In this document: positions 1 to 61,436 of the stretch, piece after piece
Layout of the letters: each line of letters starts with the position of its first letter
Position numbering within the stretch: the first letter of the stretch is position 1
Source: an uncultured Candidatus Saccharibacteria bacterium
GTDB taxonomy: Bacteria; Patescibacteriota; Saccharimonadia; Saccharimonadales; JALRHH01
Assembly: GCA_964639295.1 (NCBI GenBank)
Contig: CAZXDT010000003.1
Coordinates: 1,304-65,303, forward strand
Direction of reading: 5' to 3'
Length of the DNA: 64,000 bases
The notes under the pieces: generated by a model
Told to the model about the DNA's origin: nothing
The model's input: only the letters and a program-made list of their open reading frames with translations
The model's database searches: none
Made by a program: the position numbers and the translations under genes

Positions 1-65
1 GATAGTCAAAACCCTAGCAAGTTTTATTTTGCTAGGGTCTGTGACTGAGTGTGTATGTGCGTTAT

Positions 66-1385
66 TTAGAAAGTCGTTGTTGCTATGAAGTCTGCTTGTA
101 CAGTATACGCACCTGTTGGGGTCGTAATACCTGACAGAGCTGCAAACTTCAGGATGAGTGCTTCGTCATCAACCACTTTTACTGCTGAACCTGTTGAGGT
201 CGCGATGGTTGTGGTGTTAGCAGGGTTCGCATCCCAGGCGTAACCACCGTTAGTGGTACCACCGACTTGATCACTATCTGTTACGAATGTACCGGTACCG
301 TTACCATCATAGACTCCATCACGGACCATGTTACAGCCCGAACCGCCAGAAGCACATGTGTAAGCACTGGTGCTACCACCGTTGATACCGGCAATAGTCA
401 TACCGAACTTTTCGCCACTAATACCGACCGTGAATGCACCTTGTGAAGCACTTGTATTGAAACACTGGTCAGTGGTACTAGTAGAGACTGGGGAAGCAGT
501 ACAGGTTGCACCGGGCACTTTGAGGGAGCCAGAGCTGGTCTCTGAAAGCGAGTGATATGCAATACTCGCACCGTTAAAGGCGTTTGTACGGATCATCGCT
601 ATCGCGTTGGTGTTACTACCACCGTTAGTTGTACTCACCGGAGACACGTTAGTAGCACTGCTATCGATGTTACCGATATCAACACTAGAGGTACCAGCAA
701 GGGTGACTGCTGCACAGTCTGCACCAGGTGTCGTAGTATCGGTGTTAACTGTTGTTGATGCCACACAGAAGTCTAGACGTTCCTGGACACGTGCGTTGAC
801 GGTCAAGGTCTGTGAAGTACTTTGTGCGAAGACACCTTCCCACTTGAGGGTTGTACCGGTATCTGAGTAGATACGCATACGAGTGTAGTAGCTCTTGTTT
901 GGAGTTGTGTTGTTAACAATATCTGATGCACCTAGAGTGATCTTAAGTGCTGTTTTGCTTGTTGCATCGTCGGCAGTTGTCTTATCAAACTGAATTTGGT
1001 TATTAGAACCACCGCCTAGACCGTTTTCACGAGTAGTTGTCCCACCTGTTGAGGTCCATGGACCAGACAATGTGGCAGTTGGTGAAAGAGCGATTGTTGG
1101 TGTATTAACTGTAGTACAGGTAGTTAGTGGCGTGTCACAGAACTGAATTTCAATATAGTCTGCGTTGGCTGTGTCTGCAGTGGTATTAAATGTCCACTCT
1201 AGCTGGGTTGTTTGGCTAGGACGTGCACTAGTTGATGTTAGGTTGCGAGATAACAGTGTTGGAGCAGCAGACGCTGAACCGGTTATTAAAACCGGGGCTA
1301 CAGCAGCAAACGTCAAGACTAAGGCTGATAGCCCTGCTTGCGCCCTGCGGGAGAGATCCCGGAAACGATCTATATACACACTCAT
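66..1385 (-). CDS. Secreted Thr/Ser-rich surface protein, tandem paralog 1 (439 aa)
   Basis: Long ORF. N-terminal hydrophobic signal-like segment (..ITGSASA/AP). Paralogous to the 1779..3104 product, with an identical central block. AAGGAAA RBS-like sequence upstream. Confidence 0.8.
   Translation of the reverse strand: MSVYIDRFRDLSRRAQAGLSALVLTFAAVAPVLITGSASAAPTLLSRNLTSTSARPSQTTQLEWTFNTTADTANADYIEIQFCDTPLTTCTTVNTPTIALSPTATLSGPWTSTGGTTTRENGLGGGSNNQIQFDKTTADDATSKTALKITLGASDIVNNTTPNKSYYTRMRIYSDTGTTLKWEGVFAQSTSQTLTVNARVQERLDFCVASTTVNTDTTTPGADCAAVTLAGTSSVDIGNIDSSATNVSPVSTTNGGSNTNAIAMIRTNAFNGASIAYHSLSETSSGSLKVPGATCTASPVSTSTTDQCFNTSASQGAFTVGISGEKFGMTIAGINGGSTSAYTCASGGSGCNMVRDGVYDGNGTGTFVTDSDQVGGTTNGGYAWDANPANTTTIATSTGSAVKVVDDEALILKFAALSGITTPTGAYTVQADFIATTTF
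508..845. repeat. 338-bp tract 100% identical to 2221-2558 (inside paralog 1)
   Basis: Manual line-by-line comparison. Identity starts at gcaccgggc and ends at cccactt. Flanking sequence is only about 80% identical. Confidence 0.9.
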
Positions 1386-1515
1386 TTTGTTTTTCCTTTT
1401 ATATACTTTGTTTATTTTTTAGTATTAATGACCTATTTTTACCATAATACTCTGGGTAAACGCAAGCACTTTCACAGCATAGTTTTCCACAGGTAAGCAC
1501 TGAGGTGCACGCACT

Positions 1516-1666
1516 CCACACTTGAGATCATTTGGATTTGTTTGAGCGAAACGTAAAGGAGCCGTACTTAGGTACGGTGACTGTGTATCGTAAGCAAACA
1601 AATTCGAAGGAGCCAAGAGGCTGGCGGGTTACAAGCTCAGCTTGTAAGCAGGCCAGCCGGTGTGGG
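1516..1666 (+). ncRNA. Family-1 structured intergenic element, copy A (candidate ncRNA or REP-like repeat)
   Basis: Closing stem CCACAC/GTGTGG; hairpin GCCGTAC-ttag-GTACGGT; terminal hairpin GGCTGGC..TTACAAGCT-ca-AGCTTGTAA..GCCAGCC. Homologous to copies at 27247, 37809 and 61161. Confidence 0.6.
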
Positions 1667-1680
1667 GTGTGTTTGCAGTA

Positions 1681-1720
1681 AATAAATAAACGCCCTCTGC
1701 AATTATATGCAGGGGCGTTT
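1681..1720 (-). terminator. Rho-independent terminator after paralog 2
   Basis: - strand stem cgcccctgca/tgcagagggcg followed by tttatttatt. Confidence 0.75.
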
Positions 1721-1778
1721 ATTACCCGTTAGCTGAACTATGTCAGGATGGGATTTGATTAACCTAAAACATTCGTAC

Positions 1779-3104
1779 TTAGAAAGTAGCAGTTGCTATA
1801 AAGTCTGCTTGCACAGTGTACGAACCAGTTGGTGTCGTAATACCTGACAGAGCTGCAAACTTTAGAATCAATGCTTCGTCGTCGATAACCTTTACTGCTG
1901 AACCAGTTGAGGTCGCGATGGTTGTCGTGTTAGCAGGATCTGCGTCCCAGGCATAACCACCATTTGTGGTGCCAGCTACTTGGTCGATATCAGTTACGAA
2001 TGTACCTGTACCGTTGCCGTCGTATGCTCCATCACGGACTACATTACAACCTACGCCACCAGCGGCACATGTGTATGCACTGGTGCTACCACCGTTGATG
2101 CCGGCAATGGTCATACCGAATTTCTCACCGGTTGTACCAACTATAAATGCGCCTTGTGATGCACTTGTGTTGAAACATTGGTCAGTTGTACTTGTAGATA
2201 TTGGAGAAGCAGTACAAGTCGCACCGGGCACTTTGAGGGAGCCAGAGCTGGTCTCTGAAAGCGAGTGATATGCAATACTCGCACCGTTAAAGGCGTTTGT
2301 ACGGATCATCGCTATCGCGTTGGTGTTACTACCACCGTTAGTTGTACTCACCGGAGACACGTTAGTAGCACTGCTATCGATGTTACCGATATCAACACTA
2401 GAGGTACCAGCAAGGGTGACTGCTGCACAGTCTGCACCAGGTGTCGTAGTATCGGTGTTAACTGTTGTTGATGCCACACAGAAGTCTAGACGTTCCTGGA
2501 CACGTGCGTTGACGGTCAAGGTCTGTGAAGTACTTTGTGCGAAGACACCTTCCCACTTCAAACTCGTAGCAGGGTTGTCGTCGTAGATACGTACACGTGT
2601 GTAGTACGACTTGTTGACTGCTGCATTGTTAGTAATGTCAGCTGCACCAAGCGTAATTTTTAGTGCCGTTTTACTTGTTGCATCGTCGGCATTGGTCTTA
2701 ACGATATCAATCTGGTTATTTAAACCGTTAGATGATGCCGTACGACCATCCACTCGCGTGGTCGAGGTAACCGCAGTACTCGTCCACGGACCCGACAGTG
2801 TGGCAGTTGGTGCTATAGCAACACTTGGCGTGTTTACGGTTGTACACGTACCAAGCGGGCTGTCACAGAACTGGATTTCGATTGTCTTTGCATTCGCAGT
2901 ATCAGCCGTAGTATTGAACGTCCACTCTAATTGAGTGTTCGTCGAGGGTTGGGCACTCGTAGATGTAAGCATACGAGATGTAATGGTCGGAGCAGCTCCT
3001 GCTGTCGCTGGCAAAAGTGCTGGCAACACTCCAACTGCCCCAAGAATTACAACCTTAGTCCACAACGATACCCTACGCATTTGTAGAGTTATGTTTTGAG
3101 ACAT
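1779..3104 (-). CDS. Secreted Thr/Ser-rich surface protein, tandem paralog 2 (441 aa from the AAGGAG-preceded ATG)
   Basis: Long ORF. The ATG at 3104 is preceded by AAGGAG; the ORF track starts 21 nt upstream at 3125. Has a signal peptide and is a paralog of the 66..1385 product. Confidence 0.8.
   Translation of the reverse strand: MSQNITLQMRRVSLWTKVVILGAVGVLPALLPATAGAAPTITSRMLTSTSAQPSTNTQLEWTFNTTADTANAKTIEIQFCDSPLGTCTTVNTPSVAIAPTATLSGPWTSTAVTSTTRVDGRTASSNGLNNQIDIVKTNADDATSKTALKITLGAADITNNAAVNKSYYTRVRIYDDNPATSLKWEGVFAQSTSQTLTVNARVQERLDFCVASTTVNTDTTTPGADCAAVTLAGTSSVDIGNIDSSATNVSPVSTTNGGSNTNAIAMIRTNAFNGASIAYHSLSETSSGSLKVPGATCTASPISTSTTDQCFNTSASQGAFIVGTTGEKFGMTIAGINGGSTSAYTCAAGGVGCNVVRDGAYDGNGTGTFVTDIDQVAGTTNGGYAWDADPANTTTIATSTGSAVKVIDDEALILKFAALSGITTPTGSYTVQADFIATATF
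2221..2558. repeat. 338-bp tract 100% identical to 508-845 (inside paralog 2)
   Basis: Same manual comparison. The identical spurious + strand ORFs 552..758 and 2265..2471 in the ORF track confirm it. Confidence 0.9.
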
Positions 3105-3379
3105 ATAGTTCTCCTTAATTAACATACGTGGTGCGCACAGAGAGCCTGCATATCTTAGGATCTGGATTTAATAACAAGCAAGAGAAGCCTTCAAGCACAC
3201 GAACTAGACCAATTATATGGATTCGTTTTACTAACGGCGTCGCAAGCTGTCACTTTAGCGTCGCATATGTTTGATTTATATTGATTGTTTTTGTTTTAGG
3301 TTAATATGCACACTATTCATACCATATTATTGTGCATTAGCACAAGCAGTTATCCACAGATACACGTATCCCCTACTAC

Positions 3380-24931: not shown

Positions 24932-25312
24932 TGGTGGAGCTGGCGGGGTACCGCCCCCCGCGTCCGCTAGTTTATCTAATTAGTCTATCCTACAGGTATA
25001 GTTTGCTTGAATACAACATGGAGTGAAAGCAAACAAAAGTCCACGAGGTTTGATCCTTGTCTTAGTCCGACTACGGATCAATTGCCGGAAGCATCCAGAA
25101 ATATATGTTACGACTAGTGCTATCTGGCGTCACTCTAGGCGCAGCTGTAGGCAATTAAGCTACAGCGAAAGCAGGCTCAGGGAACAAACGTGCCTTGAGG
25201 TCTGCAATCAAAGAAGTGCGATCTGCAATTACTTTGAGTTTGTCTATAACGCTGACAAGCGACCTGCTGATCTAACTGATAAAGTCCAACGTCGAGCTTA
25301 AAATTCAGCCCC
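24932..25312 (-). ncRNA. ssrA: tmRNA (SsrA)
   Basis: 5' GGGGCTGAATTTTAAGCTCGACG. 3' ...CCCCGCCAGCTCCACCA. Acceptor stem with a G3-U pair. Internal tag ORF ...ADRTSLIADLKARLFPEPAFAVA-TAA. Confidence 0.9.
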
Positions 25313-27224: not shown

Positions 27225-27246
27225 TAACTTGTGCGGACAACAGGTT

Positions 27247-27397
27247 CCACACTTGAGCCAATTTGGATTTTCTTCTGCGAAACGTAAAGGAAACGTATCT
27301 AAATACGTTGACTGCGTATCGTAAAGAAGAAAATTCGAAGTGGCCAAGAGGCCAGCGGGTCATGGGCTCCGCTCATGAGCAGGCTGGCCGGTGTGGG
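27247..27397 (+). ncRNA. Family-1 structured intergenic element, copy B
   Basis: CCACAC...GTGTGG closing stem; hairpin AACGTAT-ctaa-ATACGTT; terminal hairpin GGCCAGC..TCATGGGC-tcc-GCTCATGA..GCTGGCC. Confidence 0.6.
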
Positions 27398-27405
27398 ATC
27401 TGTGA

Positions 27406-36869: not shown

Positions 36870-36885
36870 ATCTCGAGGGGAGTCG
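36870..36885 (-). repeat. 16-nt copy of the tRNA-Glu 3' end (third copy)
   Basis: atctcgaggggagtcg is identical to 37402-37417 and 37585-37600. It lies 2 nt beyond the stop codon of 36888..37358. Confidence 0.85.
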
Positions 36886-36887
36886 TA

Positions 36888-37358
36888 TTATCTTTGGCCG
36901 CGAATGCGTTCAATAATGCTTGTTGTCGAGACGTCACCTTCCGTACGTTCAACAACTTGCAGATGTGATGGATCCATAATGTTCCAGAAACGTGGGTCCT
37001 CACCATCAGTCGCATATAGATCTGGCTGTAGCTGAGCCACGATTTCTGCATGCACTGGGTCGATTTCGTCTGGGGGGCTTGTAGCCGGGTCAACGAATAC
37101 ATAATCCACAATTTTAAGCGCATCAAGCATCTCTGCCCTTTCGCCTTCAGGAATAATTGGCCTATCATCACCCTTACGAGCCTTAACCCTATCATCACCG
37201 CTCATCATGACAACCATAATGTCACCAAGAGCCTTCACTGTATCCAAGTAGTGCTTGTGGCCAACATGAAGCAAATCAAAGGTACCACTTGTGAGGACTA
37301 TTTTCTCGTCTTTGTGTTGGTTACGAACTTCTGCTAGGTTTTCAAGTCGTATAATCAT
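36888..37358 (-). CDS. Cytidylyltransferase-family nucleotidyltransferase (HxGH type)
   Basis: SGTFDLLHVGHKHYL motif. Start set at ATG 37358 (6 nt after the -10 hexamer); the ORF track starts at 37364. Confidence 0.8.
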   Translation of the reverse strand: MIIRLENLAEVRNQHKDEKIVLTSGTFDLLHVGHKHYLDTVKALGDIMVVMMSGDDRVKARKGDDRPIIPEGERAEMLDALKIVDYVFVDPATSPPDEIDPVHAEIVAQLQPDLYATDGEDPRFWNIMDPSHLQVVERTEGDVSTTSIIERIRGQR

Positions 37359-37364
37359 TGACAT

Positions 37365-37393
37365 ACATTAGCATAAGTATGATGAGTTGTCAA
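37365..37393 (-). promoter_or_regulatory. Sigma70-like promoter, leaderless layout
   Basis: TTGACA-17-TAATGT, then atgtca, then ATG 37358. Confidence 0.6.
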
Positions 37394-37400
37394 TGTAGAG

Positions 37401-37534
37401 GATCTCGAGGGGAGTCGAGTCACCTTCGGCGACCCCGCGACTTCTACCATGAAAGCACAGCTTTCAGGTGAAGATCACCTTGCGAATTGCCACTGGCAAT
37501 TCTCACCCTGTTACCGGTAACAGGAGTTCGAGTC
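37401..37534 (-). other. E1: tRNA-Glu 3'-half-derived composite module with an 87-nt structured insert
   Basis: Four parts: an inverted partial tRNA copy; a direct copy (palindrome CCTGTTACCGGTAACAGG, 37507-37524); the insert at 37419-37505; and an exact 18-nt tRNA 3' end at 37401-37418. Confidence 0.7.
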
Positions 37535-37540
37535 ACAAAT

Positions 37541-37570
37541 ACCAAAACAAAAACCCCAGACTAGCTGGGG
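37541..37570 (-). terminator. tRNA-Glu terminator
   Basis: CCCCAG-ctagt-CTGGGG followed by TTTTTGTTTT on the - strand. Confidence 0.8.
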
Positions 37571-37579
37571 CTCTTGTTT

Positions 37580-37654
37580 TGGTGATCTCGAGGGGAGTCG
37601 AACCCCTGTTACCAGGATGAAAACCTGGTGTCCTAACCGTTAGACGACGAGACC
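37580..37654 (-). tRNA. tRNA-Glu(UUC), CCA encoded
   Basis: Manual cloverleaf: GGTCTCG acceptor stem, anticodon loop TTTTCAT, T-arm GGGGTTCGACTCCCC. Confidence 0.95.
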
Positions 37655-37752: not shown

Positions 37753-37808
37753 TGGCCTATAGGCCGGAGCGGTCAGTCAAACTACTCGTTTGGCTGGGAC
37801 CGACATAT

Positions 37809-37959
37809 CCATACTTGAGACAATTTGGATGCGACTCTGCGGAGTACAAGGAGCCGTACTAAAGTACGGTGACTGCACCCCGCAAAAAGAGGCAAGTTCA
37901 AATGGTCCAAGAAGCCAGCGGGTCGCGAGCTCCGCTCGTGAGCAGGCTGGCTGGTATGG
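37809..37959 (+). ncRNA. Family-1 structured intergenic element, copy C (most divergent full copy)
   Basis: Closing stem CCATAC/GTATGG; stem GCGGAGTAC/GCACCCCGC; hairpin GCCGTAC-taaa-GTACGGT; terminal hairpin AGCCAGC..TCGCGAGC-tcc-GCTCGTGA..GCTGGCT. Confidence 0.6.
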
Positions 37960-37968
37960 AATGTCGGG

Positions 37969-50506: not shown

Positions 50507-51323
50507 CGCTTTTTATTGTATTATTTGCCGCACGGATGACGTTGTCGAACAGGGCACAGACGGTGAGGGGACCTACCCCGCCCTTCTCTGGCGTAATAGT
50601 TATATCAGGTAATTCACGCACGTCTTGGGCAACATCGCCAATAAGCCCGTTGCTGTCTGTAGCGACACCAGCGTCGACAATTACCGCATTAGACTTGATC
50701 ATATCTGCTTTTACAAGGCCTGGCACTCCTGTTGCGCAGACTAAAACATCTGCATCTTTGGTTACTTCCGCAAGGTTTGGAACCGACTTATCAATAACTG
50801 TTACCTCGAGGTTTGATTCGCCCCATAATTTGGTAAGTGGCTTCCCTACTAACCGACCATTTCCAACAATCGTCAGTACTTTACCTCGTAGATCCACATT
50901 AAAACCGGCCAATAACCAAGTAATAGCTAGTGGAGTTGGGGCATCAAACGTAGTGTTTTCCCCTAGCCCGTCGACATCTTTTTCTGCTGCGACAGCATTT
51001 AGTATCTCTGTTGTTTGAGTGGGGTCAGGAACTGGAATCTGCACAATAATACCGTGAACTGACGGGTCTTTGTTAAGTTCCGCAATACGACCCAGTGCCT
51101 CTGACTGCTCAATTGTGTGTACATCAACATCAACATCGACTTCTTTGCCGTAGCTCTGCTTGATCTTCATGTAGCTATCAACTACTGGGTCTGGGTTGGT
51201 ACGAATAATTGCTAGTTTGGGTGCGATGCCGCGTCCTTGACGCAATGCGCGCACCTGCCCAACCTGCCGTTGCTGTATGTAGCCGGCTAATTCTTTACCA
51301 TTGAGTAACTTCATTGGCACCAT
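50499..51323 (-). CDS. folD: Methylenetetrahydrofolate dehydrogenase/cyclohydrolase
   Basis: FolD pattern (YMKIKQ, VQIPVP, GVGPLT). Confidence 0.9.
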   Translation of the reverse strand: MVPMKLLNGKELAGYIQQRQVGQVRALRQGRGIAPKLAIIRTNPDPVVDSYMKIKQSYGKEVDVDVDVHTIEQSEALGRIAELNKDPSVHGIIVQIPVPDPTQTTEILNAVAAEKDVDGLGENTTFDAPTPLAITWLLAGFNVDLRGKVLTIVGNGRLVGKPLTKLWGESNLEVTVIDKSVPNLAEVTKDADVLVCATGVPGLVKADMIKSNAVIVDAGVATDSNGLIGDVAQDVRELPDITITPEKGGVGPLTVCALFDNVIRAANNTIKSDA

Positions 51324-51419
51324 TGTACGCCATAAGGTGTTGCAAGAACAGAGGTAAACTGATACAATCGTCTGGTCTTTTGGGTGTATTACTCAAAAAT
51401 GCACCACATAGTTCAATAA

Positions 51420-51496
51420 GGGCCAGTAGCTCAGCTGGTTAGAGCACCTGCCTCTTAAGCAGGGTGTCGAGGGTTCGAGTCCCTCCTGGCCCTCCA
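51420..51496 (+). tRNA. tRNA-Lys(CUU), CCA encoded
   Basis: Manual cloverleaf: GGGCCAG acceptor stem, anticodon loop CTCTTAA, T-arm GAGGGTTCGAGTCCCTC. Confidence 0.95.
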
Positions 51497-51500
51497 TAAT

Positions 51501-51529
51501 AAAACACCCTCCTCGCCGAGGGTGTTTTA
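51501..51529 (+). terminator. tRNA-Lys terminator (T1)
   Basis: ACACCCT-cctcgccg-AGGGTGT followed by TTTT. Confidence 0.8.
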
Positions 51530-51544
51530 TTATGCTGAGCTATG

Positions 51545-51688
51545 TGGACTCGAATTCTCGACACGCCAAAGGGTGTCGAGGTGAGAACTGCCTGTGGCAG
51601 TTCGCAAGGGAGCCAACTCTTGCAAACTGGTTTGCAAAGATGTTGCGACGGGTCGGCTGAAAGTCGGTCGAGTCCCTCCTGGCCCTCC
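51545..51688 (+). other. E2: tRNA-Lys 3'-half-derived composite module with an 86-nt structured insert
   Basis: Four parts: an inverted partial copy at 51545-51563; a direct 12-nt copy at 51569-51580; the insert at 51581-51666; and an exact 22-nt tRNA 3' end including CCA at 51667-51688. Confidence 0.7.
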
Positions 51689-51852
51689 AGATGGCTTGCG
51701 CAAACTCAATGTTCCTCCCGGCTCTCCAAGCATAAGCATCATAAAAGGCTTCTCGCTAGTAGGGGTAGCCGAGGGCTACAGAGTAATTTTACCGGGTTGT
51801 TCTAATACAACGCCCTTCATTAGAGAAGTCGAATCCTTGGTGTTTTTAACTA

Positions 51853-51881
51853 TTGACAATTTAACTTGCTTATGTTAATAT
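51853..51881 (+). promoter_or_regulatory. Sigma70-like promoter, leaderless layout
   Basis: TTGACA-17-TAATAT, then 6 nt, then ATG 51888. Confidence 0.65.
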
Positions 51882-51887
51882 GTTCTT

Positions 51888-52415
51888 ATGAATCAAGCAA
51901 ACTTTCCAGGCCCCAACCCTAGTGAACATCCAGAAGTTGCCGATAATCCAGAAGCTATGCAGCCCGCCACGGAAGCGAGCAAGCAAGCGTTGCTCGACCT
52001 GATAGCAACTAACCCAGCTGACGACCGAACGCTTGCCTTTGCGGAAGAAGCAAAAGGCAGAATACAAACTACAAACTTTCCAGAAGATGTTTTTCCCCGT
52101 CTAGCCAGTATTCGTCGTGTTGAATGGCCAGATAATACATATGGGAAACAGCTCGTAACTAACTATTCTATTGTTGCATCTCCGGATGGTCCGCAAATAG
52201 AAAAACACGTGCACACATTTGACCCAAGCACAGAACTGGCAAATATTGATACAAACGCTAATGATGGTTCCTCACTCCTTACTAGTGCTCTGATAAGGAT
52301 GAGAGCACAGCGAGCATCAAGTACCGATGAAGATGAATTAGGTTTAAGTTTTGTTTCTGAAGCAGAGACAAAAGCCCTGATAGCCTTACTTGAAGAAGCA
52401 CACCCTCTTAGCTAA
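51888..52415 (+). CDS. Hypothetical acidic protein (175 aa)
   Basis: ORF directly downstream of the leaderless-type promoter. No motif recognised. Confidence 0.7.
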   Translation: MNQANFPGPNPSEHPEVADNPEAMQPATEASKQALLDLIATNPADDRTLAFAEEAKGRIQTTNFPEDVFPRLASIRRVEWPDNTYGKQLVTNYSIVASPDGPQIEKHVHTFDPSTELANIDTNANDGSSLLTSALIRMRAQRASSTDEDELGLSFVSEAETKALIALLEEAHPLS

Positions 52416-52536
52416 ATTGTACGAACCGGTTTTATATACTCTATTTTAAATCAGTAGTGGGGGAAATTTAACGTATTAGCTAGTATATGTAATCTCGTAT
52501 AGGTGCGCATATTTGCTGCTTACTGTTTAGAAGTGA

Positions 52537-52565
52537 GTCGAAGTCTCCGGGCTTCGACTTTTTTA
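52537..52565 (+). terminator. Rho-independent terminator
   Basis: GTCGAAG-tctccggg-CTTCGAC followed by T7. Confidence 0.7.
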
Positions 52566-52754
52566 ATTTTCTTAGAACATTCGGAATTTCTATATGTTCA
52601 GGATACGCATCTATCATATAACTCGCTGTATCACCACGGTCTATTACTGCGGACCCGAAGTTGTTTATGGATGGTTGACAAGAAATTTAAATAGGAATAC
52701 CATCAAAAAAAAGAAAAGTACATATATTAATCAATTACTATAAGGAGATTACAA

Positions 52755-52895
52755 ATGTCAGTAATCACTATGGATCGCAGAATAGCAACAATTGTAGTGG
52801 TCAGTGGACTAGTAGTTGTCGCTACTATCGTCTTCGGGCTCAGTAATAGTATGAGCCAGCTCACTCAGGCAGCCACATTTATGACAGGGCACTAG
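52755..52895 (+). CDS. Possible small membrane protein (46 aa)
   Basis: AAGGAG RBS 7 nt upstream. Sequence MSVITMDRRIATIVVVSGLVVVATIVFGLSNSMSQLTQAATFMTGH. Below the ORF-track cutoff. Confidence 0.45.
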   Translation: MSVITMDRRIATIVVVSGLVVVATIVFGLSNSMSQLTQAATFMTGH

Positions 52896-52927
52896 AATTG
52901 TTCATAGGAGTTAGCAGCTAGGCCAGC

Positions 52928-52963
52928 GTGTCGACTGGATACGTGTGCTAGCTGAGCGCTCCA
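52928..52963 (+). repeat. Degenerate copy of the tRNA-Lys 3' part (GTGTCGA....CTGAGCGCTCCA)
   Basis: Shares GTGTCGA and the ..C.CTCCA tail with tRNA-Lys. It is directly followed by a copy of the tRNA terminator. Confidence 0.5.
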
Positions 52964-52965
52964 AA

Positions 52966-53000
52966 CAAAAACACCTACCTCGCCGTAGGTGTTTTTGTTT
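52966..53000 (+). terminator. Terminator T2, a paralog of the tRNA-Lys terminator T1
   Basis: AAAACACC-TA-CCTCGCCG-TA-GGTGTTTT versus T1 AAAACACC-CT-CCTCGCCG-AG-GGTGTTTT. All four differences are compensatory. Confidence 0.8.
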
Positions 53001-53014
53001 GCTATAGTCAGCCC
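53000..53014 (+). promoter_or_regulatory. Extended -10 promoter, leaderless layout
   Basis: TGcTATAGT, then 6 nt, then ATG 53015. Confidence 0.5.
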
Positions 53015-53575
53015 ATGCACATGCCTATTGTAGATTCAGCACTCTCTAGAGACGAAGCAACGAAGCAGAACCCAGAATCCCCCTGCCCCGAAGAGATACT
53101 CAATCAGATCGTCCTCATTACTGTCAATTACTACTCCTTCGACCGCAAAGTCCATACCGGGCAGGTAGTCATCCACAAAGATCTGGCAGATGATGTAAAA
53201 GGCGCTTTTAAACTACTTCTTGAAGATAAGTTCCCCATCCAATCAGTAATTCCCATCTCAGAAGATAGATTCATGTGGCAGGACGATATTTCAACAGTCG
53301 AAAACAACACTTCGGCATTCAATTACAGGCTTGTTAGGGATACGGACATAATGTCGAACCATGCCACCGGAAGAGCAATTGATATCAACCCAAAGCACAA
53401 TCCCTACTTCCCGGGAGAAAAAGTATATCCACCCCACGCCACATACGACCCACATGTGTCTGGCACAATCTTACCGGACAGTAAACTTGTTAAGTATTTC
53501 CAAGATCTGGGCTGGCGCTGGGGCGGTAACTGGGATGAAGACTCAGACTATCAACATTTTGAAAAGGTAGCATAA
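53015..53575 (+). CDS. M15-family (VanY / D-Ala-D-Ala carboxypeptidase-like) zinc peptidase
   Basis: SNHATGRAIDI (H-x6-D) and DYQHFE. Confidence 0.8.
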   Translation: MHMPIVDSALSRDEATKQNPESPCPEEILNQIVLITVNYYSFDRKVHTGQVVIHKDLADDVKGAFKLLLEDKFPIQSVIPISEDRFMWQDDISTVENNTSAFNYRLVRDTDIMSNHATGRAIDINPKHNPYFPGEKVYPPHATYDPHVSGTILPDSKLVKYFQDLGWRWGGNWDEDSDYQHFEKVA

Positions 53576-55404: not shown

Positions 55405-55432
55405 AAACGACCAGCTTACGCTGGTCGTTTTT
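55405..55432 (+). terminator. Hairpin terminator (bidirectional form)
   Basis: AAACGACCAGC-ttac-GCTGGTCGTTT followed by TT. Confidence 0.75.
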
Positions 55433-55523
55433 GGTACACCGGGCTGGGTAGTGCACATCTTTAGCCATGCTCGGTGCGAGCACCTGCGCGTGGCTTTGAT
55501 GACCGAACCATGGATCGAGTCCA
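55432..55523 (-). other. E3: degenerate second copy of the tRNA-Arg 3' part
   Basis: Contains GGACTCGA. CAGGTGCTCGCA resembles tRNA CAGGTGTCGCA. It ends CCGGTGTACCA, versus CCGGGTGTACCA in the tRNA. Confidence 0.45.
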
Positions 55524-55545
55524 GGCTCGATAAATCGAGTTGAAA

Positions 55546-55573
55546 TTAAAACCGCCCCCTTAGGAAGCGGCTT
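55546..55573 (-). terminator. tRNA-Arg terminator
   Basis: GCCGC...GCGGT stem followed by TTTTAATTT on the - strand. Confidence 0.6.
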
Positions 55574-55583
55574 AAATTTCACC

Positions 55584-55660
55584 TGGTACACCCGGCAAGA
55601 TTCGAACTTGCGACACCTGGTTCCGAAGACCAGTGCTCTAATCCACTGAGCTACGGGTGC
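55584..55660 (-). tRNA. tRNA-Arg(UCG), CCA encoded
   Basis: Manual cloverleaf: GCACCCG acceptor stem, anticodon loop CTTCGGA, T-arm GCAAGTTCGAATCTTGC. Confidence 0.95.
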
Positions 55661-59623: not shown

Positions 59624-61153
59624 ATGGGCATTATGTCAGATACAAACGAGAAAATTGGTCACCTTATTTATCAAGTACGACAAGAACGCGGTATGACGCA
59701 AGCAGAGTTTGCACGCAAGCTCGGTACCAGTCAATCAGCCGTTAACCGTATAGAACACGGCAAACAGAATCTCAGCCTTGAGACACTCGGCCGCATCAGT
59801 GATGTACTGAAGAAGCCCTTGATTACCCTTGGCACCAACGCGATGAACTTCAAAATTGAAGGTGGCCATGAACTCAGTGGGACTATCCAAACAAATGTAT
59901 CCAAGAACGCTGCGGTTTGTCTCTTATTTGCTGCCCTACTCAATAAAGGAACAACGCGGTTCAAACGTATGCCTCGCATTGAAGAGGTCTACCGAATTAT
60001 CGAAGTGCTGACGAGTATTGGTGTCGGTGTTAAATGGCTACCTGGTAATGATTTAGAGATTAAACCCCCTGCTGAAATCAACATGAGCAAGATGGACAAT
60101 GTCGCTGCACGTAAAACCCGCAGTGTCATTATGATGCTTGGCCCACTCATGCACCTGTTTGACGATTTCCGGATCCCATACGCTGGTGGCTGTAAGCTTG
60201 GTACTCGTACCGTTCAGCCGCACCTGTTTGCTCTTGAGGAATTTGGCGTTGATATCATCGCCAAGACCGGCTTCTACCAGGTTAATGTAACCAAGAAGCA
60301 GCCAGAAGAGATTGTGCTGTACGAATCTGGTGACACCACTACAGAAAACGTCATTATGGCTGCTGCCAAATTTGACGGCGAAGTAACTATCAAGATGGCT
60401 AGTGCTAACTACATGGTCCAAGACCTGTGTATCTTCCTTAAGAAACTTGGTGTCAAAATTGACGGTATTGGTACCAGCACACTCAAGATCCGTGGCGTAA
60501 AAGACATTAAGAAGAACGTTACGTATTCACCAAGCGAAGACCCTATTGAATCTATGACCTTCATTGCTGCTGCAGTTGCTACCAACTCAAAGCTCACTAT
60601 TTCTCGCTCACCGATTGAATTCCTGGAGCTAGAACTCCTTAAGCTCAAGAAAATGGGACTCAAAGTTGATGTATCGGAAAAGTACAAAGCCGATAACGGA
60701 CACACTGATCTTGCGGACATTACCGTCCATAAACACAACGGCGAACTACGTGCGCTAGAAGAAAAGATCTATGCTCGTCCCTTCCCTGGGCTTAATATCG
60801 ATAACCTGCCACTATTTGTACCAATTGCCGCAGTCGCTAAAGGCCGCACATTGATCCATGACTGGGTCTATGAAGAACGCGCGCTGTACTACACAGAAAT
60901 GCGTAAACTAAACGTCAACGTCACCTTAGCCGATCCACACCGTGCATACATTGACGGGCCAACCAAGTGGAGTGCAGCTGATGTCGTCTGCCCACCTGCA
61001 CTGCGCCCAGCAATGCTGCTTCTTATTGGTATGTTGGCTGCAAATGGTGACTCTGTGCTACGTAACGTCTACTCCATTAACCGTGGATATGAAGATTTTG
61101 CAGAACGACTCAGTAGTGTCGGGGCGCATATCTCCCTAATGCACGAGATTTAG
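59624..61153 (+). CDS. murA: XRE-HTH domain fused to UDP-GlcNAc 1-carboxyvinyltransferase
   Basis: Residues ~10-65 form an HTH (RGMTQAEFARKLGTSQSAVNRIEHGKQN). The rest is MurA-like (SKNAAVCLLFAALL; active-site loop GGCKLGTRTV). The start may be ATG 59633. Confidence 0.9.
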   Translation: MGIMSDTNEKIGHLIYQVRQERGMTQAEFARKLGTSQSAVNRIEHGKQNLSLETLGRISDVLKKPLITLGTNAMNFKIEGGHELSGTIQTNVSKNAAVCLLFAALLNKGTTRFKRMPRIEEVYRIIEVLTSIGVGVKWLPGNDLEIKPPAEINMSKMDNVAARKTRSVIMMLGPLMHLFDDFRIPYAGGCKLGTRTVQPHLFALEEFGVDIIAKTGFYQVNVTKKQPEEIVLYESGDTTTENVIMAAAKFDGEVTIKMASANYMVQDLCIFLKKLGVKIDGIGTSTLKIRGVKDIKKNVTYSPSEDPIESMTFIAAAVATNSKLTISRSPIEFLELELLKLKKMGLKVDVSEKYKADNGHTDLADITVHKHNGELRALEEKIYARPFPGLNIDNLPLFVPIAAVAKGRTLIHDWVYEERALYYTEMRKLNVNVTLADPHRAYIDGPTKWSAADVVCPPALRPAMLLLIGMLAANGDSVLRNVYSINRGYEDFAERLSSVGAHISLMHEI

Positions 61154-61160
61154 CCAGCTT

Positions 61161-61309
61161 TCACACTTGAGCCAATTTGGATTTTGTTCTGCGAAACGTA
61201 AAGGAGCCGTACTAAGGTACGGTGACTGCGTCACGTAAAGAGGAAAATTCGAAGGGGCCAAGAGGCCAGCGGATGGCGAGCTCCGCTCGACAGCAGGCTG
61301 GCTGGTATG
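61161..61309 (+). ncRNA. Family-1 structured intergenic element, copy D
   Basis: TCACAC...GTATGA closing stem; GCGAAACGT/GCGTCACGT stem; GCCGTAC-taag-GTACGGT hairpin; GGCCAGC..CGAGC-tcc-GCTCG..GCTGGCT. Confidence 0.6.
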
Positions 61310-61436
61310 AATGCTGGCTAACGTAGAAGATCTTCTAGGTGAGACTTGTAGCCTGTCTTTAGATACATAATGTAGCTCAACGCTATAACAATGAGTGTCA
61401 CTAATATGACTGTTCGTTGCCATTCTTTGAGGTTTT

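Follow-up and report, generated by a model that had tools for sequence, protein, structure and literature searches.

Among the described systems closest to the locus examined here are the tRNA-anchored islands and islet arrays, which include the integrase-mediated genomic islands and the tycheposon-like arrays of Prochlorococcus. In the Thermoproteales, archaeal tRNA introns transpose, and related short inserts occur at non-canonical T-loop and D-loop positions of different tRNAs. Protein-less palindromic mobile elements are represented by the Rickettsia palindromic elements, mitochondrial GC clusters, and double-hairpin elements. The genomes of Saccharibacteria and other Patescibacteria are tiny and contain few recognizable mobile elements, and gene gain and shuffling in these bacteria are poorly understood.

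We examined a region of about 1.5 kb behind tRNA-Lys in a stretch of 64,000 nt (the window) from an uncultured Candidatus Saccharibacteria bacterium. As in the tRNA-anchored islands, the cargo at this locus immediately follows a tRNA gene on its 3′ side, incomplete copies of the tRNA 3′ end mark its bounds, insertions are stacked, and the content differs from one close relative to another. Direct repeats of the 3′ part of a tRNA, a criterion for integrase islands, are present as the tRNA-Lys copies and as three exact 16-mers at tRNA-Glu. The features of the tRNA-Lys locus are as follows.

51420..51496, + strand: intact tRNA-Lys(CTT) (ARAGORN and Rfam tRNA, 72.2 bits)
51495..51534, + strand: T1, a 17-bp hairpin resembling a terminator and set flush against the CCA (homologue of T2; 5 pair changes, all compensated)
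51536..51564, + strand: antisense copy of the tRNA 3′ half (inverted repeats, RNA fold, CM alignment)
51570..51581, + strand: sense copy "a," AGGGTGTCGAGG (direct repeat, 12/12 identical to tRNA positions 51461-51472)
51583..51667, + strand: conserved E core, GAGAA...AGTCGG (pattern matches; CM R1, 144.8 bits; covariation)
51668..51689, + strand: exact 22-nt copy of the tRNA 3′ end, TCGAGTCCCTCCTGGCCCTCCA (0 mismatches, 0 expected by chance)
51707..51728, + strand: weak third tail copy, CAATGTTCCTCCCGGCTCTCCA (15/22)
51853..52570, + strand: ORF175 cassette (promoter, leaderless ORF, own terminator-like hairpin)
52675..52895, + strand: ORF46 cassette (promoter-like site, AAGGAG, hydrophobic ORF)
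52925..52963, + strand: degenerate, displaced tRNA-Lys tail (the chain of two blocks scores 28, as does 1 of 3116 control windows)
52962..53001, + strand: T2, the terminator at the ancestral position (positional equivalent of T2 in relatives L024 and L025)

The segment that is copied downstream is the last 36 nt of tRNA-Lys (51461-51496), which span the variable loop, the T-arm, the 3′ strand of the acceptor, and the CCA. From the tRNA onward, the interval opens with an E unit, made up of T1, the 144-nt element E2, and the exact 22-nt copy of the tRNA tail. A decayed tail follows, then the cassettes of ORF175 and ORF46, and finally the displaced ancestral tail with T2. The original prediction viewed this interval as one 1.4-kb insertion that had duplicated, or brought with it, the tRNA 3′ end and terminator. 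The duplication is supported, in that the tail and the terminator copies are statistically real and the locus varies among relatives; the single insertion is not, as the interval is a composite of at least three layers. We slightly favor the view that small insertions have piled up between tRNA-Lys and the M15 gene and that each left behind a copy of the tRNA tail.

The two terminators are similar in detail. T1 has arms at 51495-51511 and 51518-51534 around the loop CTCGCC (51512-51517) and is followed by a T-run, while the arms of T2 (52962-52978 and 52985-53001) are 100% complementary and enclose the same loop. T2 is located just upstream of the promoter and gene of M15 (53015-53575). The local alignment score of T1 and T2 is 37, compared to a maximum of 25 among 6234 control windows from the 64 kb. 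The four compensatory differences initially reported in a 28-nt core are confirmed, and the full hairpins have 10 differences, all of which fall within 5 paired positions that are still complementary.

The degenerate tail in front of T2 begins with AGCGTGTCGA (52925-52934), which matches AGGGTGTCGA of the tRNA, and continues through a 17-nt filler to CTGAGCGCTCCA (52952-52963), which corresponds to CTGGCCCTCCA. Its first block is weak on its own (equalled by 2.6% of control windows). The alignment statistics of this tail had been set beforehand as a test capable of refuting the prediction, and in the two-block form the alignment is significant. The original prediction missed both the exact 22-nt tail at 51668-51689 and the weak third copy at 51707-51728, the latter of which is probably a remnant of an older layer.

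E2 is a conserved folded 144-nt element of an apparently undescribed family that sits inside tRNA fragments beside intact tRNA genes. Its antisense part starts with a decayed c′ (51536-51545), followed by b′, GGACTCGA (51546-51553), which forms the 5′ strand of helix P1, and by a′, CTCGACAC (51557-51564), which forms the 5′ strand of P2. The sense copy "a" supplies the 3′ strand of P2 and ends in GGT immediately before the core, and the exact 22-nt tail supplies the 3′ strand of P1 and a free tail. Within the core, P3 (51582-51606) has an invariant lower stem, UGAGAA/UUCGCA; the variable hairpin P4 (approximately 51614-51645) is followed by a GGG linker; and P5 (51653-51667) has 6 bp, a GAA loop, and a conserved G.U. 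Positions 51464-51564 constitute one long imperfect palindrome of inverted repeats, centered at the T1 loop. The original prediction understated E2, which is a tRNA-derived scaffold bearing a conserved core. Because the terminator-like hairpin T1 lies between the tRNA and E, strong sense transcription of E appears doubtful.

All three tRNA genes of the window carry a trailer of such architecture. The other features involved are as follows.

37400..37579, − strand: parallel unit at tRNA-Glu (37580-37654) (CM, 131.8 bits)
36870..37399, − strand: cytidylyltransferase cassette (leaderless promoter and ORF 36888-37364)
55405..55583, − strand: analogous trailer of tRNA-Arg (55584-55660) (X block common to the tRNA-Lys trailer of L025-L027)

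The tRNA-Glu unit comprises a T1 at approximately 37540-37579 and the element E1 (37400-37538), which includes a tail copy at 37402-37417. The proposed parallel between this locus and tRNA-Lys holds: E1 and E2 are homologous, and the cytidylyltransferase cassette lies between exact 16-nt repeats of the tRNA-Glu tail, with the third copy (36870-36885) closing it. The rightmost tail copy is followed by GTGG, unlike the CACCA of the tRNA, and the cassette must therefore have entered the tail of an E element rather than the tRNA. The tRNA-Arg trailer has T1, then GGACTCGA..GGTTCGG, and then a core different from E, designated X (CGCGCAGGTGCTCGCACCGAGCA), followed by a tail copy (55432-55448) and a second terminator (approximately 55405-55431).

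Using CM R1, we found 30 distinct E copies, a few of them partial or weak, across 18 loci in Saccharibacteria, one Parcubacteria genome, and unassigned metagenome contigs. Under a strict pattern, which is biased to tRNAs with a TTCGAGT T-loop, matches were restricted to CPR genomes and metagenome contigs, and the named hosts were again Saccharibacteria and one Parcubacteria. In each copy, a three-hairpin core of about 87 nt follows GGT inside a partial copy of the neighboring tRNA, and copies downstream of a tRNA are framed by local antisense and sense copies of its T-arm. The GGT precedes 27 of 28 cores. The exception, AGT, equals the GGAGT54 of tRNA-Gly itself, and the T is therefore part of the target. 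At the right junction of the core, nothing is repeated. The carriers are partial tRNA copies without an ARAGORN call.

The E alignment is conserved at GGT-GAGAA, UUCGCAAGG, GGG, and the G.U of P5, where one pair is G.U in 23 of 24 copies. Paired cells make up 86.8% of the alignment, compared to 31-41% when the partners are slid, and double changes are found in 40 of 46 pairs (covariation score 0.39 versus 0.04-0.07), counts that are somewhat inflated by the fitting of the CM alignment to its own model. In P2-P5, G.U combinations outnumber A.C ones by 54 to 12, which identifies the strand as given as the functional strand. A further candidate motif, GGACTCGAA, was rejected, as the antisense strand tracks the local T-loop in the L014-Pro, L034-Glu, and L001-Gly copies.

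Several arrangements are suggestive of mobility. On one 3.6-kb contig, each of two different host cores contains a nested core, the two nested cores being 95% identical, and a third case of nesting is found in L001. Tandem units are present in L016 and L011; the intact and decayed parts of the L016 array segregate consistently only if the unit is defined as [b c T antisense loop a core]. E copies are found on both flanks of tRNA-Pro and tRNA-Ala in L014. Similarity between cores does not follow the identity of the tRNA: E2, at a tRNA-Lys, shares 91% identity with a Val copy and 88% with a Lys copy.

Relatives, whose synteny was drawn from protein look-ups, differ in what they hold between tRNA-Lys and M15 (L024, L025, and L026), as a synteny check proposed with the original prediction was meant to establish. 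L025 (M15 67% identical) lacks cargo: its tRNA-Lys is followed by T1, an element of about 120 nt, and a 17-nt tail, after which T2 immediately precedes M15. L024 (M15 86% identical) carries another small element and another membrane-protein cargo, and L026 has a multi-gene island that ends at GGCCCTCCA. Large islands abut tRNA-Lys and tRNA-Val tails in L026, L017/L018, and L013. At tRNA-Glu, L034 has E without cargo, and L032 has neither E nor the cytidylyltransferase cargo; these two share TTCCAGAGTA, and the bases before it are too diverged for boundaries to be drawn. In L031, the cytidylyltransferase gene is located away from any tRNA and lacks tail repeats. A genome with only 83% identity in pyruvate kinase has E at the same place behind tRNA-Glu. 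No clean pair of empty and filled sites with identical flanks was found among the relatives compared, nor was a circular junction observed. In a tblastn comparison of the window proteins with L001-L020, folD in L016 was the sole match.

The ORF175 cassette has a TTGACA-17-TAATAT promoter with TG (51853-51881), and the gene (51888-52415; 175 aa, pI 4.48) is leaderless because its ATG lies 7 nt after the −10 box, in agreement with the acidic, leaderless product proposed initially. A terminator-like hairpin of its own (52535-52560) is followed by a T-run. The GC content of the gene (0.453) is near that of the window (0.463), its GC3 is 0.318 versus 0.40-0.49 in neighboring genes, and the spacer at 52416-52754 has a GC content of 0.34. 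Only 10 homologues were found. Homologues are located directly behind tRNA-Pro, there followed by a degenerate tRNA-Pro tail, and behind tRNA-Asp, and one (L039) adjoins a fragmented large serine recombinase. A Pfam search with ORF175 gave no match, and the AlphaFold2 model (mean pLDDT, 66) gave best Foldseek PDB TM-scores of about 0.2, which are not meaningful. The ORF46 cassette has a promoter-like site (52675-52703) and AAGGAG (52742-52747) 7 nt upstream of the ATG. As anticipated for a possible membrane peptide, ORF46 (52755-52895; 46 aa) is hydrophobic (GRAVY, 1.04); it was found only in the same-strain contigs L021 and L022.

A search of the window (Pfam, ORFs of ≥110 aa) found no integrase, transposase, reverse transcriptase, or TnpB, and no mobility enzyme recurred among 95 ORFs around 20 E loci (Pfam). 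Y1 HUH transposase (TnpA) was likewise not found in the window or among the families common to the 95 neighboring ORFs. At the gathering threshold, Rfam 15 identified only tRNA and tmRNA in the whole window, and permissive Rfam searches of E gave no match at E-values up to 10 (51300-53100) or 5 (four other loci). Two scans for the E pattern in 2.9 million viral contigs returned 0 matches, blastn of E2 against phage and plasmid records returned none, and a search of the published literature that included the conserved motif strings yielded nothing relevant to E.

Known classes were compared with E as well. A tmRNA-like RNA or split-tRNA half was rejected, since the acceptor 5′ partner is absent; an IS110 bridge RNA or TnpB guide RNA was rejected, since neither a recombinase nor TnpB is present and the "guides" base-pair internally. 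Group I and group II introns exceed about 200 nt and have a catalytic core (P3-P9 or domains I-VI), whereas the E core has about 87 nt with three simple hairpins and matched no intron model; threading it as an HDV-like ribozyme, hammerhead, or K-turn gave no fit.

The layout and homology of the parts, their covariation and strand bias, the nesting and tandem arrangement of copies, and the differences among relatives are established, and we propose as their best explanation, with a probability of roughly 55%, serial recombination at tRNA tails combined with a small, structured mobile element active in single-stranded form. Incoming DNA with its own version of the stretch from T-loop to CCA would recombine with the chromosomal tRNA segment or with an earlier tail copy, possibly as a small circle or a Campbell-type unit. 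The incoming piece would provide a working 3′ end and terminator, and the previous tail would be shifted downstream and decay. The outermost layer would be the ancestral tail with T2 ahead of the M15 gene; the next would be the ORF175 and ORF46 cassettes, with the further decayed tail at 51707-51728; and the layer at the tRNA would be the E unit, b-c-T1-antisense-loop-a-core, with the exact 22-nt tail behind it. The E core would be a separate non-coding mobile element of about 87 nt, moving as folded single-stranded RNA or DNA and landing after the T of GGT in hairpin loops of dispensable tRNA-like copies. Its putative landing sites are T-loop U54, D-loop U20, and nt 6, as well as GGGGU^CGCG, where the P5 of another core begins. 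In downstream copies, P1 and P2, built from local antisense and sense T-arm copies, may hold the core at a multi-helix junction. A trans-acting enzyme would be encoded outside the window; because no enzyme is found in the window or recurs near 20 E loci, it is hypothetical.

Some observations fit this explanation poorly. The antisense copy is locally derived, for which a simple mobile unit does not account, and the retention of the tRNA-Glu position at 83% pyruvate kinase identity fits long vertical retention of a functional RNA equally well. The GTGG behind the rightmost tRNA-Glu tail copy and the terminator-like hairpin ahead of E also weigh against it. More tentatively, we conjecture that the E core represents a novel type of structured, mobile nucleic acid of Patescibacteria without an adjacent enzyme. 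Joined with sense and antisense tRNA segments copied from the locality, it would build a folded single-stranded mimic of the att site of the tRNA gene, and this site would capture cassettes such as ORF175 and cytidylyltransferase. The core would enter after U54 of T-loops, or after the equivalent GGU in D-loops or its own P5, and the outcome might be a tRNA-anchored, integron-like cassette system or a ribozyme-type RNA.

E and X could instead be vertically inherited functional noncoding RNAs of tRNA operons, located in the leader or trailer, with roles such as tRNA processing, quality control, or decoying of the att site of the tRNA gene, with the tails and cassettes being unrelated integrase scars. 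We consider this unlikely. The conservation of the three-hairpin core, its lower P3 stem and its G.U being invariant from Saccharibacteria to Parcubacteria, the location of 5′-type copies between promoter and tRNA, and thus their transcription with the tRNA, the constant place of E behind tRNA-Glu in the 83% relative, and the trailers on 3 of 3 tRNA genes all agree with such a role. However, cores nested in cores, tandem arrays, and decayed copies are difficult to reconcile with it, as is the absence or replacement of E in the closer relatives L032 and L024. Core similarity is also independent of tRNA identity, the 3′-type copies lie behind a terminator-like hairpin, the partial tRNA flanks are pseudo-fragments, and one copy lies at the end of a protein gene. 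Still less probable is that the locus is debris of integrase islands or prophages in tRNA genes, nearly all of it deleted, with E and X as leftover attP arms. Although direct tail repeats are the classic att signature, large islands abut tRNA-Lys and tRNA-Val tails (L026, L017/L018, and L013), and a fragmented large serine recombinase neighbors an ORF175 homologue (L039), attP arms would not be expected to show 40 of 46 covarying pairs with a conserved G.U, 5′-side D-loop positions, nesting, or conservation between phyla, and E had no match in 2.9 million viral contigs or in phage or plasmid records.

The long imperfect palindrome at 51464-51564, centered on the T1 loop, raises the alternative that no mobile element was involved and that template switching during replication or repair at the palindromic terminator and T-arm produced a fold-back inversion and triplication. 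The near identity of T1 and T2 in L007, their homology in the window, and antisense copies that follow the local tRNA are in line with it. Template switching, however, leaves unexplained why a conserved 87-nt core that is foreign to the tRNA recurs at one nucleotide position in many tRNAs and genomes, as well as the 5′-type copies, nested cores, and promoter-bearing cassettes, and we regard it as quite improbable. Chance matching between A/T-rich terminators and short GC-rich strings might account for the first block of the degenerate tail, which 2.6% of control windows equal or exceed, but as a general explanation it is refuted by the control distributions (T1/T2 score of 37 against a null maximum of 25; two-block tail in 1 of 3116) and is further contradicted by the exact 22-mer, with 0 expected, and the CM E-values of 1e−42 and 1e−38.

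The tRNA-Lys locus represents a repeatable route of gene gain, in which self-contained small cassettes pile up behind tRNA genes between tail copies. E, in turn, is a conserved folded element at a single nucleotide position of tRNA loops that has no counterpart in Rfam 15 or in the searched records of phages and plasmids. If E is mobile as a single strand, or is a cassette attachment site, it would represent a new minimal mobility or recombination system and possibly a site-specific insertion tool for the naturally competent Saccharibacteria; if it is a functional RNA instead, it would be a new tRNA-linked RNA class. Either way, it accounts for "empty" structured DNA beside tRNA genes in automated annotation.

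Compared to known systems, the serial recombination that we propose differs from that of tRNA islands in that neither the window nor the surroundings of the E loci yielded an integrase, units without a gene can be as short as about 200 nt, and the tail copy is split by a structured core with an antisense copy before it. Similar to integron attC sites and the folded attP of CTX phage, small cassettes form promoter-proximal arrays beside a fixed site, conservation of E is structural and strand-specific, which implies a folded single strand, and the stacking of P2 and P1 restores the target in duplex form. Integrons have an IntI gene, an attI site, and a Pc promoter, whereas the window contains no integrase and the anchor is a tRNA gene; unlike attC, E has no R/L boxes and no RYYYAAC or GTTRRRY core sites at its conserved positions. 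With the IS200/IS605 miniature elements (PATEs and the REP/BIME type), E shares a size of about 90-190 nt, the lack of terminal inverted repeats and target duplication, and insertion directly 3′ of a short fixed motif (GGT). The end hairpins (P3 and P5), strict strand bias, and G.T pairs are compatible with such an affiliation and do not prove it. Its putative cleavage points, however, lie at hairpin feet, so the end geometry differs, its targets are tRNA-like hairpin loops, and the local sense and antisense duplications are foreign to that family. E resembles archaeal tRNA introns in its insertion at T-loop and D-loop positions of different tRNAs and differs from them in its bacterial host, in having pseudo-fragments beside an intact gene as carriers, and in the lack of a bulge-helix-bulge at the junctions (by inspection of the feet of P2/P3 and P5). 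Lastly, E is, like the protein-less palindromic elements, a short, structured, selfish insert without its own enzyme that is tolerated in RNA-gene contexts, but it is unrelated to them in sequence and is distinguished by a three-hairpin covarying core and a single-nucleotide target in tRNA loops.

For the interval between tRNA-Lys and the M15 peptidase gene (53015-53575), the most plausible reading is a hot spot where tail-directed insertions have stacked up. The newest layer of that stack belongs to a family of small structured elements, set in tRNA fragments, that seems not to have been described before. We call the copy behind tRNA-Lys E2 and its homologue behind tRNA-Glu E1.

Features of the window and of two other contigs
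51420-51496: tRNA-Lys(CTT)
51495-51511 and 51518-51534: arms of T1, a 17-bp terminator-like hairpin directly 3′ of tRNA-Lys, loop CTCGCC
51546-51564: antisense copy of the tRNA-Lys T-arm region
51570-51581: sense copy of tRNA positions 51461-51472 (12/12), after a short loop; followed by a foreign core of 85 nt that starts GAGAA
51668-51689: exact 22-nt copy of the tRNA-Lys 3′ end
51707-51728: weaker tail copy
52962-52978 and 52985-53001: arms of the T2 hairpin, same loop as T1
37400-37579, opposite strand: same layout behind tRNA-Glu, homologous core (E1)
55405-55583, minus strand: tRNA-Arg trailer with T1, T-arm-like antisense/sense hairpin, X core, tail copy (55432-55448) and second terminator
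24932-25312, minus strand: tmRNA gene (Rfam, 59.1 bits)
L014, 6641-6786 and 9423-9563: 5′-type copies of E (tRNA-Pro, tRNA-Ala)
L039, 41-1315, minus strand: fragmented large serine recombinase (Resolvase N-terminal piece and Recombinase domain), divergent from an ORF175 homologue

The original prediction described a second terminator copy with compensatory differences, preceded by a degenerate tRNA tail, and both parts were borne out. T1 and T2 differ at 10 positions, all within 5 base pairs that stay complementary, and their local alignment score is 37, compared to 25 for the best of 6234 control windows from the same 64 kb. Two tail blocks lie in order within the 39 nt before T2 (AGCGTGTCGA resembling AGGGTGTCGA, and CTGAGCGCTCCA resembling CTGGCCCTCCA); the first is unremarkable alone (equalled by 2.6% of control windows), and the score of the two-block chain is attained in 1 of 3116 control windows. 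The islet as reported is real and was somewhat understated.

Two cargo cassettes lie between E2 and T2, and both resemble what had been proposed for them. ORF175 has a leaderless promoter (TTGACA-17-TAATAT, with the ATG 7 nt past the −10 box), an acidic product (pI 4.5), and its own terminator-like hairpin; its GC content equals that of the genome, with low GC3. ORF46, the candidate membrane peptide, is a hydrophobic 46-mer with AAGGAG upstream. Only ten homologues of ORF175 were found, all with the leaderless TTGACA-17-TAnTAT promoter; they are located directly past tRNA-Pro, with a degenerate tRNA-Pro tail ~270 nt beyond the stop codon, directly past tRNA-Asp, and in one case (L039) next to a fragmented large serine recombinase. 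No other mobility enzyme was seen near this family. Elsewhere in the window, a cytidylyltransferase cassette has exact 16-mers of the tRNA-Glu tail on both sides.

Synteny agrees with the proposed insertion at tRNA-Lys, as the content of the tRNA-Lys/M15 interval differs among three relatives. In L025 (M15 67% identical), tRNA-Lys is followed by T1, a different core that we call X, a 17-nt tail, and T2 immediately before M15. L026 encodes the same M15 protein as L025, yet carries a multi-gene island that terminates at GGCCCTCCA. In L024 (M15 86% identical), a glycosyltransferase gene is inserted upstream, other filler, tail and T2 follow, and the cargo is a different membrane protein between repeats of the T2/M15-promoter junction. 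At tRNA-Glu, two relatives (L034 and L035; pyruvate kinase 83% identical) carry T1 and E behind the tRNA gene but no cargo, another (89%) has a DUF1801 gene without E, and in a third (96%) the cytidylyltransferase gene has the same promoter but lies away from tRNA genes and lacks tail repeats. The last 6 to 9 nt of the tRNA tail (GGCCCTCCA, but CCACCA in L013) also mark where larger islands end, just before T1 and the E or X unit, at ~4760 in L026 (genes for PLD, HTH and ABC transporter/MacB), ~800 in L017/L018, and ~4270 in L013. Therefore, a second, classical insertion type uses the same tails.

Between T1 and ORF175 are found, in order, the antisense T-arm copy, a loop, the sense copy, the core, the exact tail and the weaker tail, and positions 51464-51564 form a single long imperfect palindrome centered at the T1 loop. 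The parallel that had been drawn with tRNA-Glu holds in layout and in core homology. In three independent same-strain assemblies (Logan contigs L021-L023), E2 is interrupted by breaks at ~51583 and ~51636 of the window, which probably reflects the repeat in common with E1; population-level variation may be another reading.

A search pattern derived from E1 and E2 matched 4 species-representative genomes (3 Saccharibacteria and 1 Parcubacteria) and 16 metagenome contigs, mostly ~50 nt past a tRNA gene and its terminator. A covariance model, R1, built from 13 copies yielded 40 matches in the window and 18 of the fetched loci, of which 30 are distinct and a few of these partial or weak; its matches within the window are E2 (144.8 bits) and E1 (131.8 bits) alone. 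In the alignment fitted to R1, standard pairs occupy 86.8% of pair cells, versus 31 to 41% with partners slid, compensatory double changes occur in 40 of 46 pairs, and the covariation score is 0.39, versus 0.04 to 0.07 in slid controls. Covariation in hairpins P3 and P4 was already visible in an earlier, independent MAFFT/RNAalifold run. In addition, 23 of 24 copies have G.U at one P5 pair, and G.U pairs outnumber A.C mismatches in P2-P5 (54 versus 12). E is therefore under selection as a single strand that folds in the given polarity. No matching model exists in Rfam 15, searches of phage and plasmid records and of 2.9 million viral contigs gave no match, and a literature search returned nothing on E.

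The conserved part of E is a three-hairpin core. The lower stem of P3 (UGAGAA/UUCGCA, including an A.G) is invariant, P4 is conserved in structure and variable in sequence, and a GGG linker leads to P5, a hairpin that either is extended or has 6 bp and a GAA loop. Of 28 distinct copies, 27 have GGT directly before the core; the sole exception is preceded by AGT, exactly tRNA-Gly's own GGAGT54, and hence the T before the core belongs to the target. Most cores lie within the T-loop of 3′ partial tRNA copies. In L014, cores also lie in 5′ partial copies upstream of intact genes, in the D-loop after U20 for tRNA-Ala and after nt 6 for tRNA-Pro; a promoter-like TATAAT is located further upstream of each, so the core would belong to the pre-tRNA leader. 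Both tRNAs additionally carry 3′-type copies. An E-type core without tRNA context (L010, 413-500) lies at the extreme 3′ terminus of a protein gene, the reading frame of which stops inside the core; judged from sequence, the gene product has a putative CCA-adding-enzyme-like C-terminus. Our tRNA-biased search pattern thus covers less than the whole core family.

The surrounding scaffold has the order sense-antisense-sense, [a b c T1] [c′ b′ a′] loop [a core b c], where a, b and c are segments of the tRNA 3′ half. Where the neighboring tRNA's T-loop departs from the common TTCGAGT, the antisense segment matches it (ACTCAAA at tRNA-Pro in L014, AATCGAA at tRNA-Glu in L034, CTAAC at tRNA-Gly in L001), so that helices P1 and P2 derive from local sequence. 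The X core (block CGCGCAGGTGCTYGCACCGAGCA), unrelated to the E core, occupies the same kind of scaffold at two places: behind the window's tRNA-Arg, with a tail copy and second terminator, and behind tRNA-Lys in L025-L027. The two trailers have a 22-nt block, GCGCAGGTGCTYGCACCGAGCA, in common, and L024 has still another filler. Because the tRNA-Arg trailer has the same architecture, all three tRNA genes of the window carry such trailers.

Some cores are nested inside GGGGT^CGCG, the start of another core's P5 (once in L001, twice in L009). The two nested cores of L009, a single 3.6-kb contig, are 95% identical, each in a different host core. At ~2790-3060, that contig has a nearly full-length pseudo-tRNA-Val(CAC) whose T-loop contains two nested E cores (Rfam tRNA 19.8 bits, under threshold; acceptor and T stems now unpaired). 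Core similarity does not track tRNA identity: E2 shares 91% identity with a Val copy and 88% with a Lys copy, and E1 resembles a Val copy more than it does the L034 Glu copy. Nested near-identical cores and similarity across tRNAs speak for movement or exchange and against a static gene. The main rival, that E is a functional tRNA-linked RNA, we regard as improbable; this reading and mobility are not exclusive.

With a probability of roughly 0.55, we favor tRNA-tail recombination by a hypothetical trans-acting enzyme, combined with an independently mobile core active as a single strand. In L016, two E units lie in tandem behind tRNA-Lys: in the proximal one the antisense, a and core motifs are decayed but the tail behind them is an exact 21-nt copy, whereas the distal one, intact and with an exact a, has a decayed tail behind it. 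These intact and decayed parts segregate consistently only for the unit [b c - terminator - antisense - loop - a - core]. Such a unit could arise if a small circle or incoming piece with E and a terminator recombined within the b-c segment (T-loop to CCA), and a single crossover would likewise yield the 5′-type copies (promoter, tRNA 1-20, core, 22-26, spacer, intact tRNA). Neither a circular form nor an empty site was seen. Pfam searches of every window ORF of at least 110 aa detected no integrase, transposase, reverse transcriptase or TnpB, only housekeeping functions (e.g., ATP synthase, MetRS, PGK/TIM/PK, MurA/B, SHMT, UvrD) and unknowns, and 95 ORFs around 20 E loci have no mobility family in common.

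The window also holds a ~160-nt minus-strand repeat in four copies (1500-1670, 27231-27401, 37794-37964 and 61145-61315), absent from Rfam, that starts directly after the stop codons of minus-strand genes, mostly for surface proteins (DUF11/PKD, G5, sortase and a 448-aa ORF without assigned function). The fold predicted by RNAalifold has 56 pairs, and 20 of these show compensatory changes; the repeat may be a 3′-UTR structured RNA. At 63-3125 are tandem minus-strand paralogues (ORFs 66-1385 and 1779-3125; DNA blocks 74 to 83% identical), neither with a Pfam match.

As an islet, the tRNA-Lys locus is a variant of an already known type; the E element may be new in kind.
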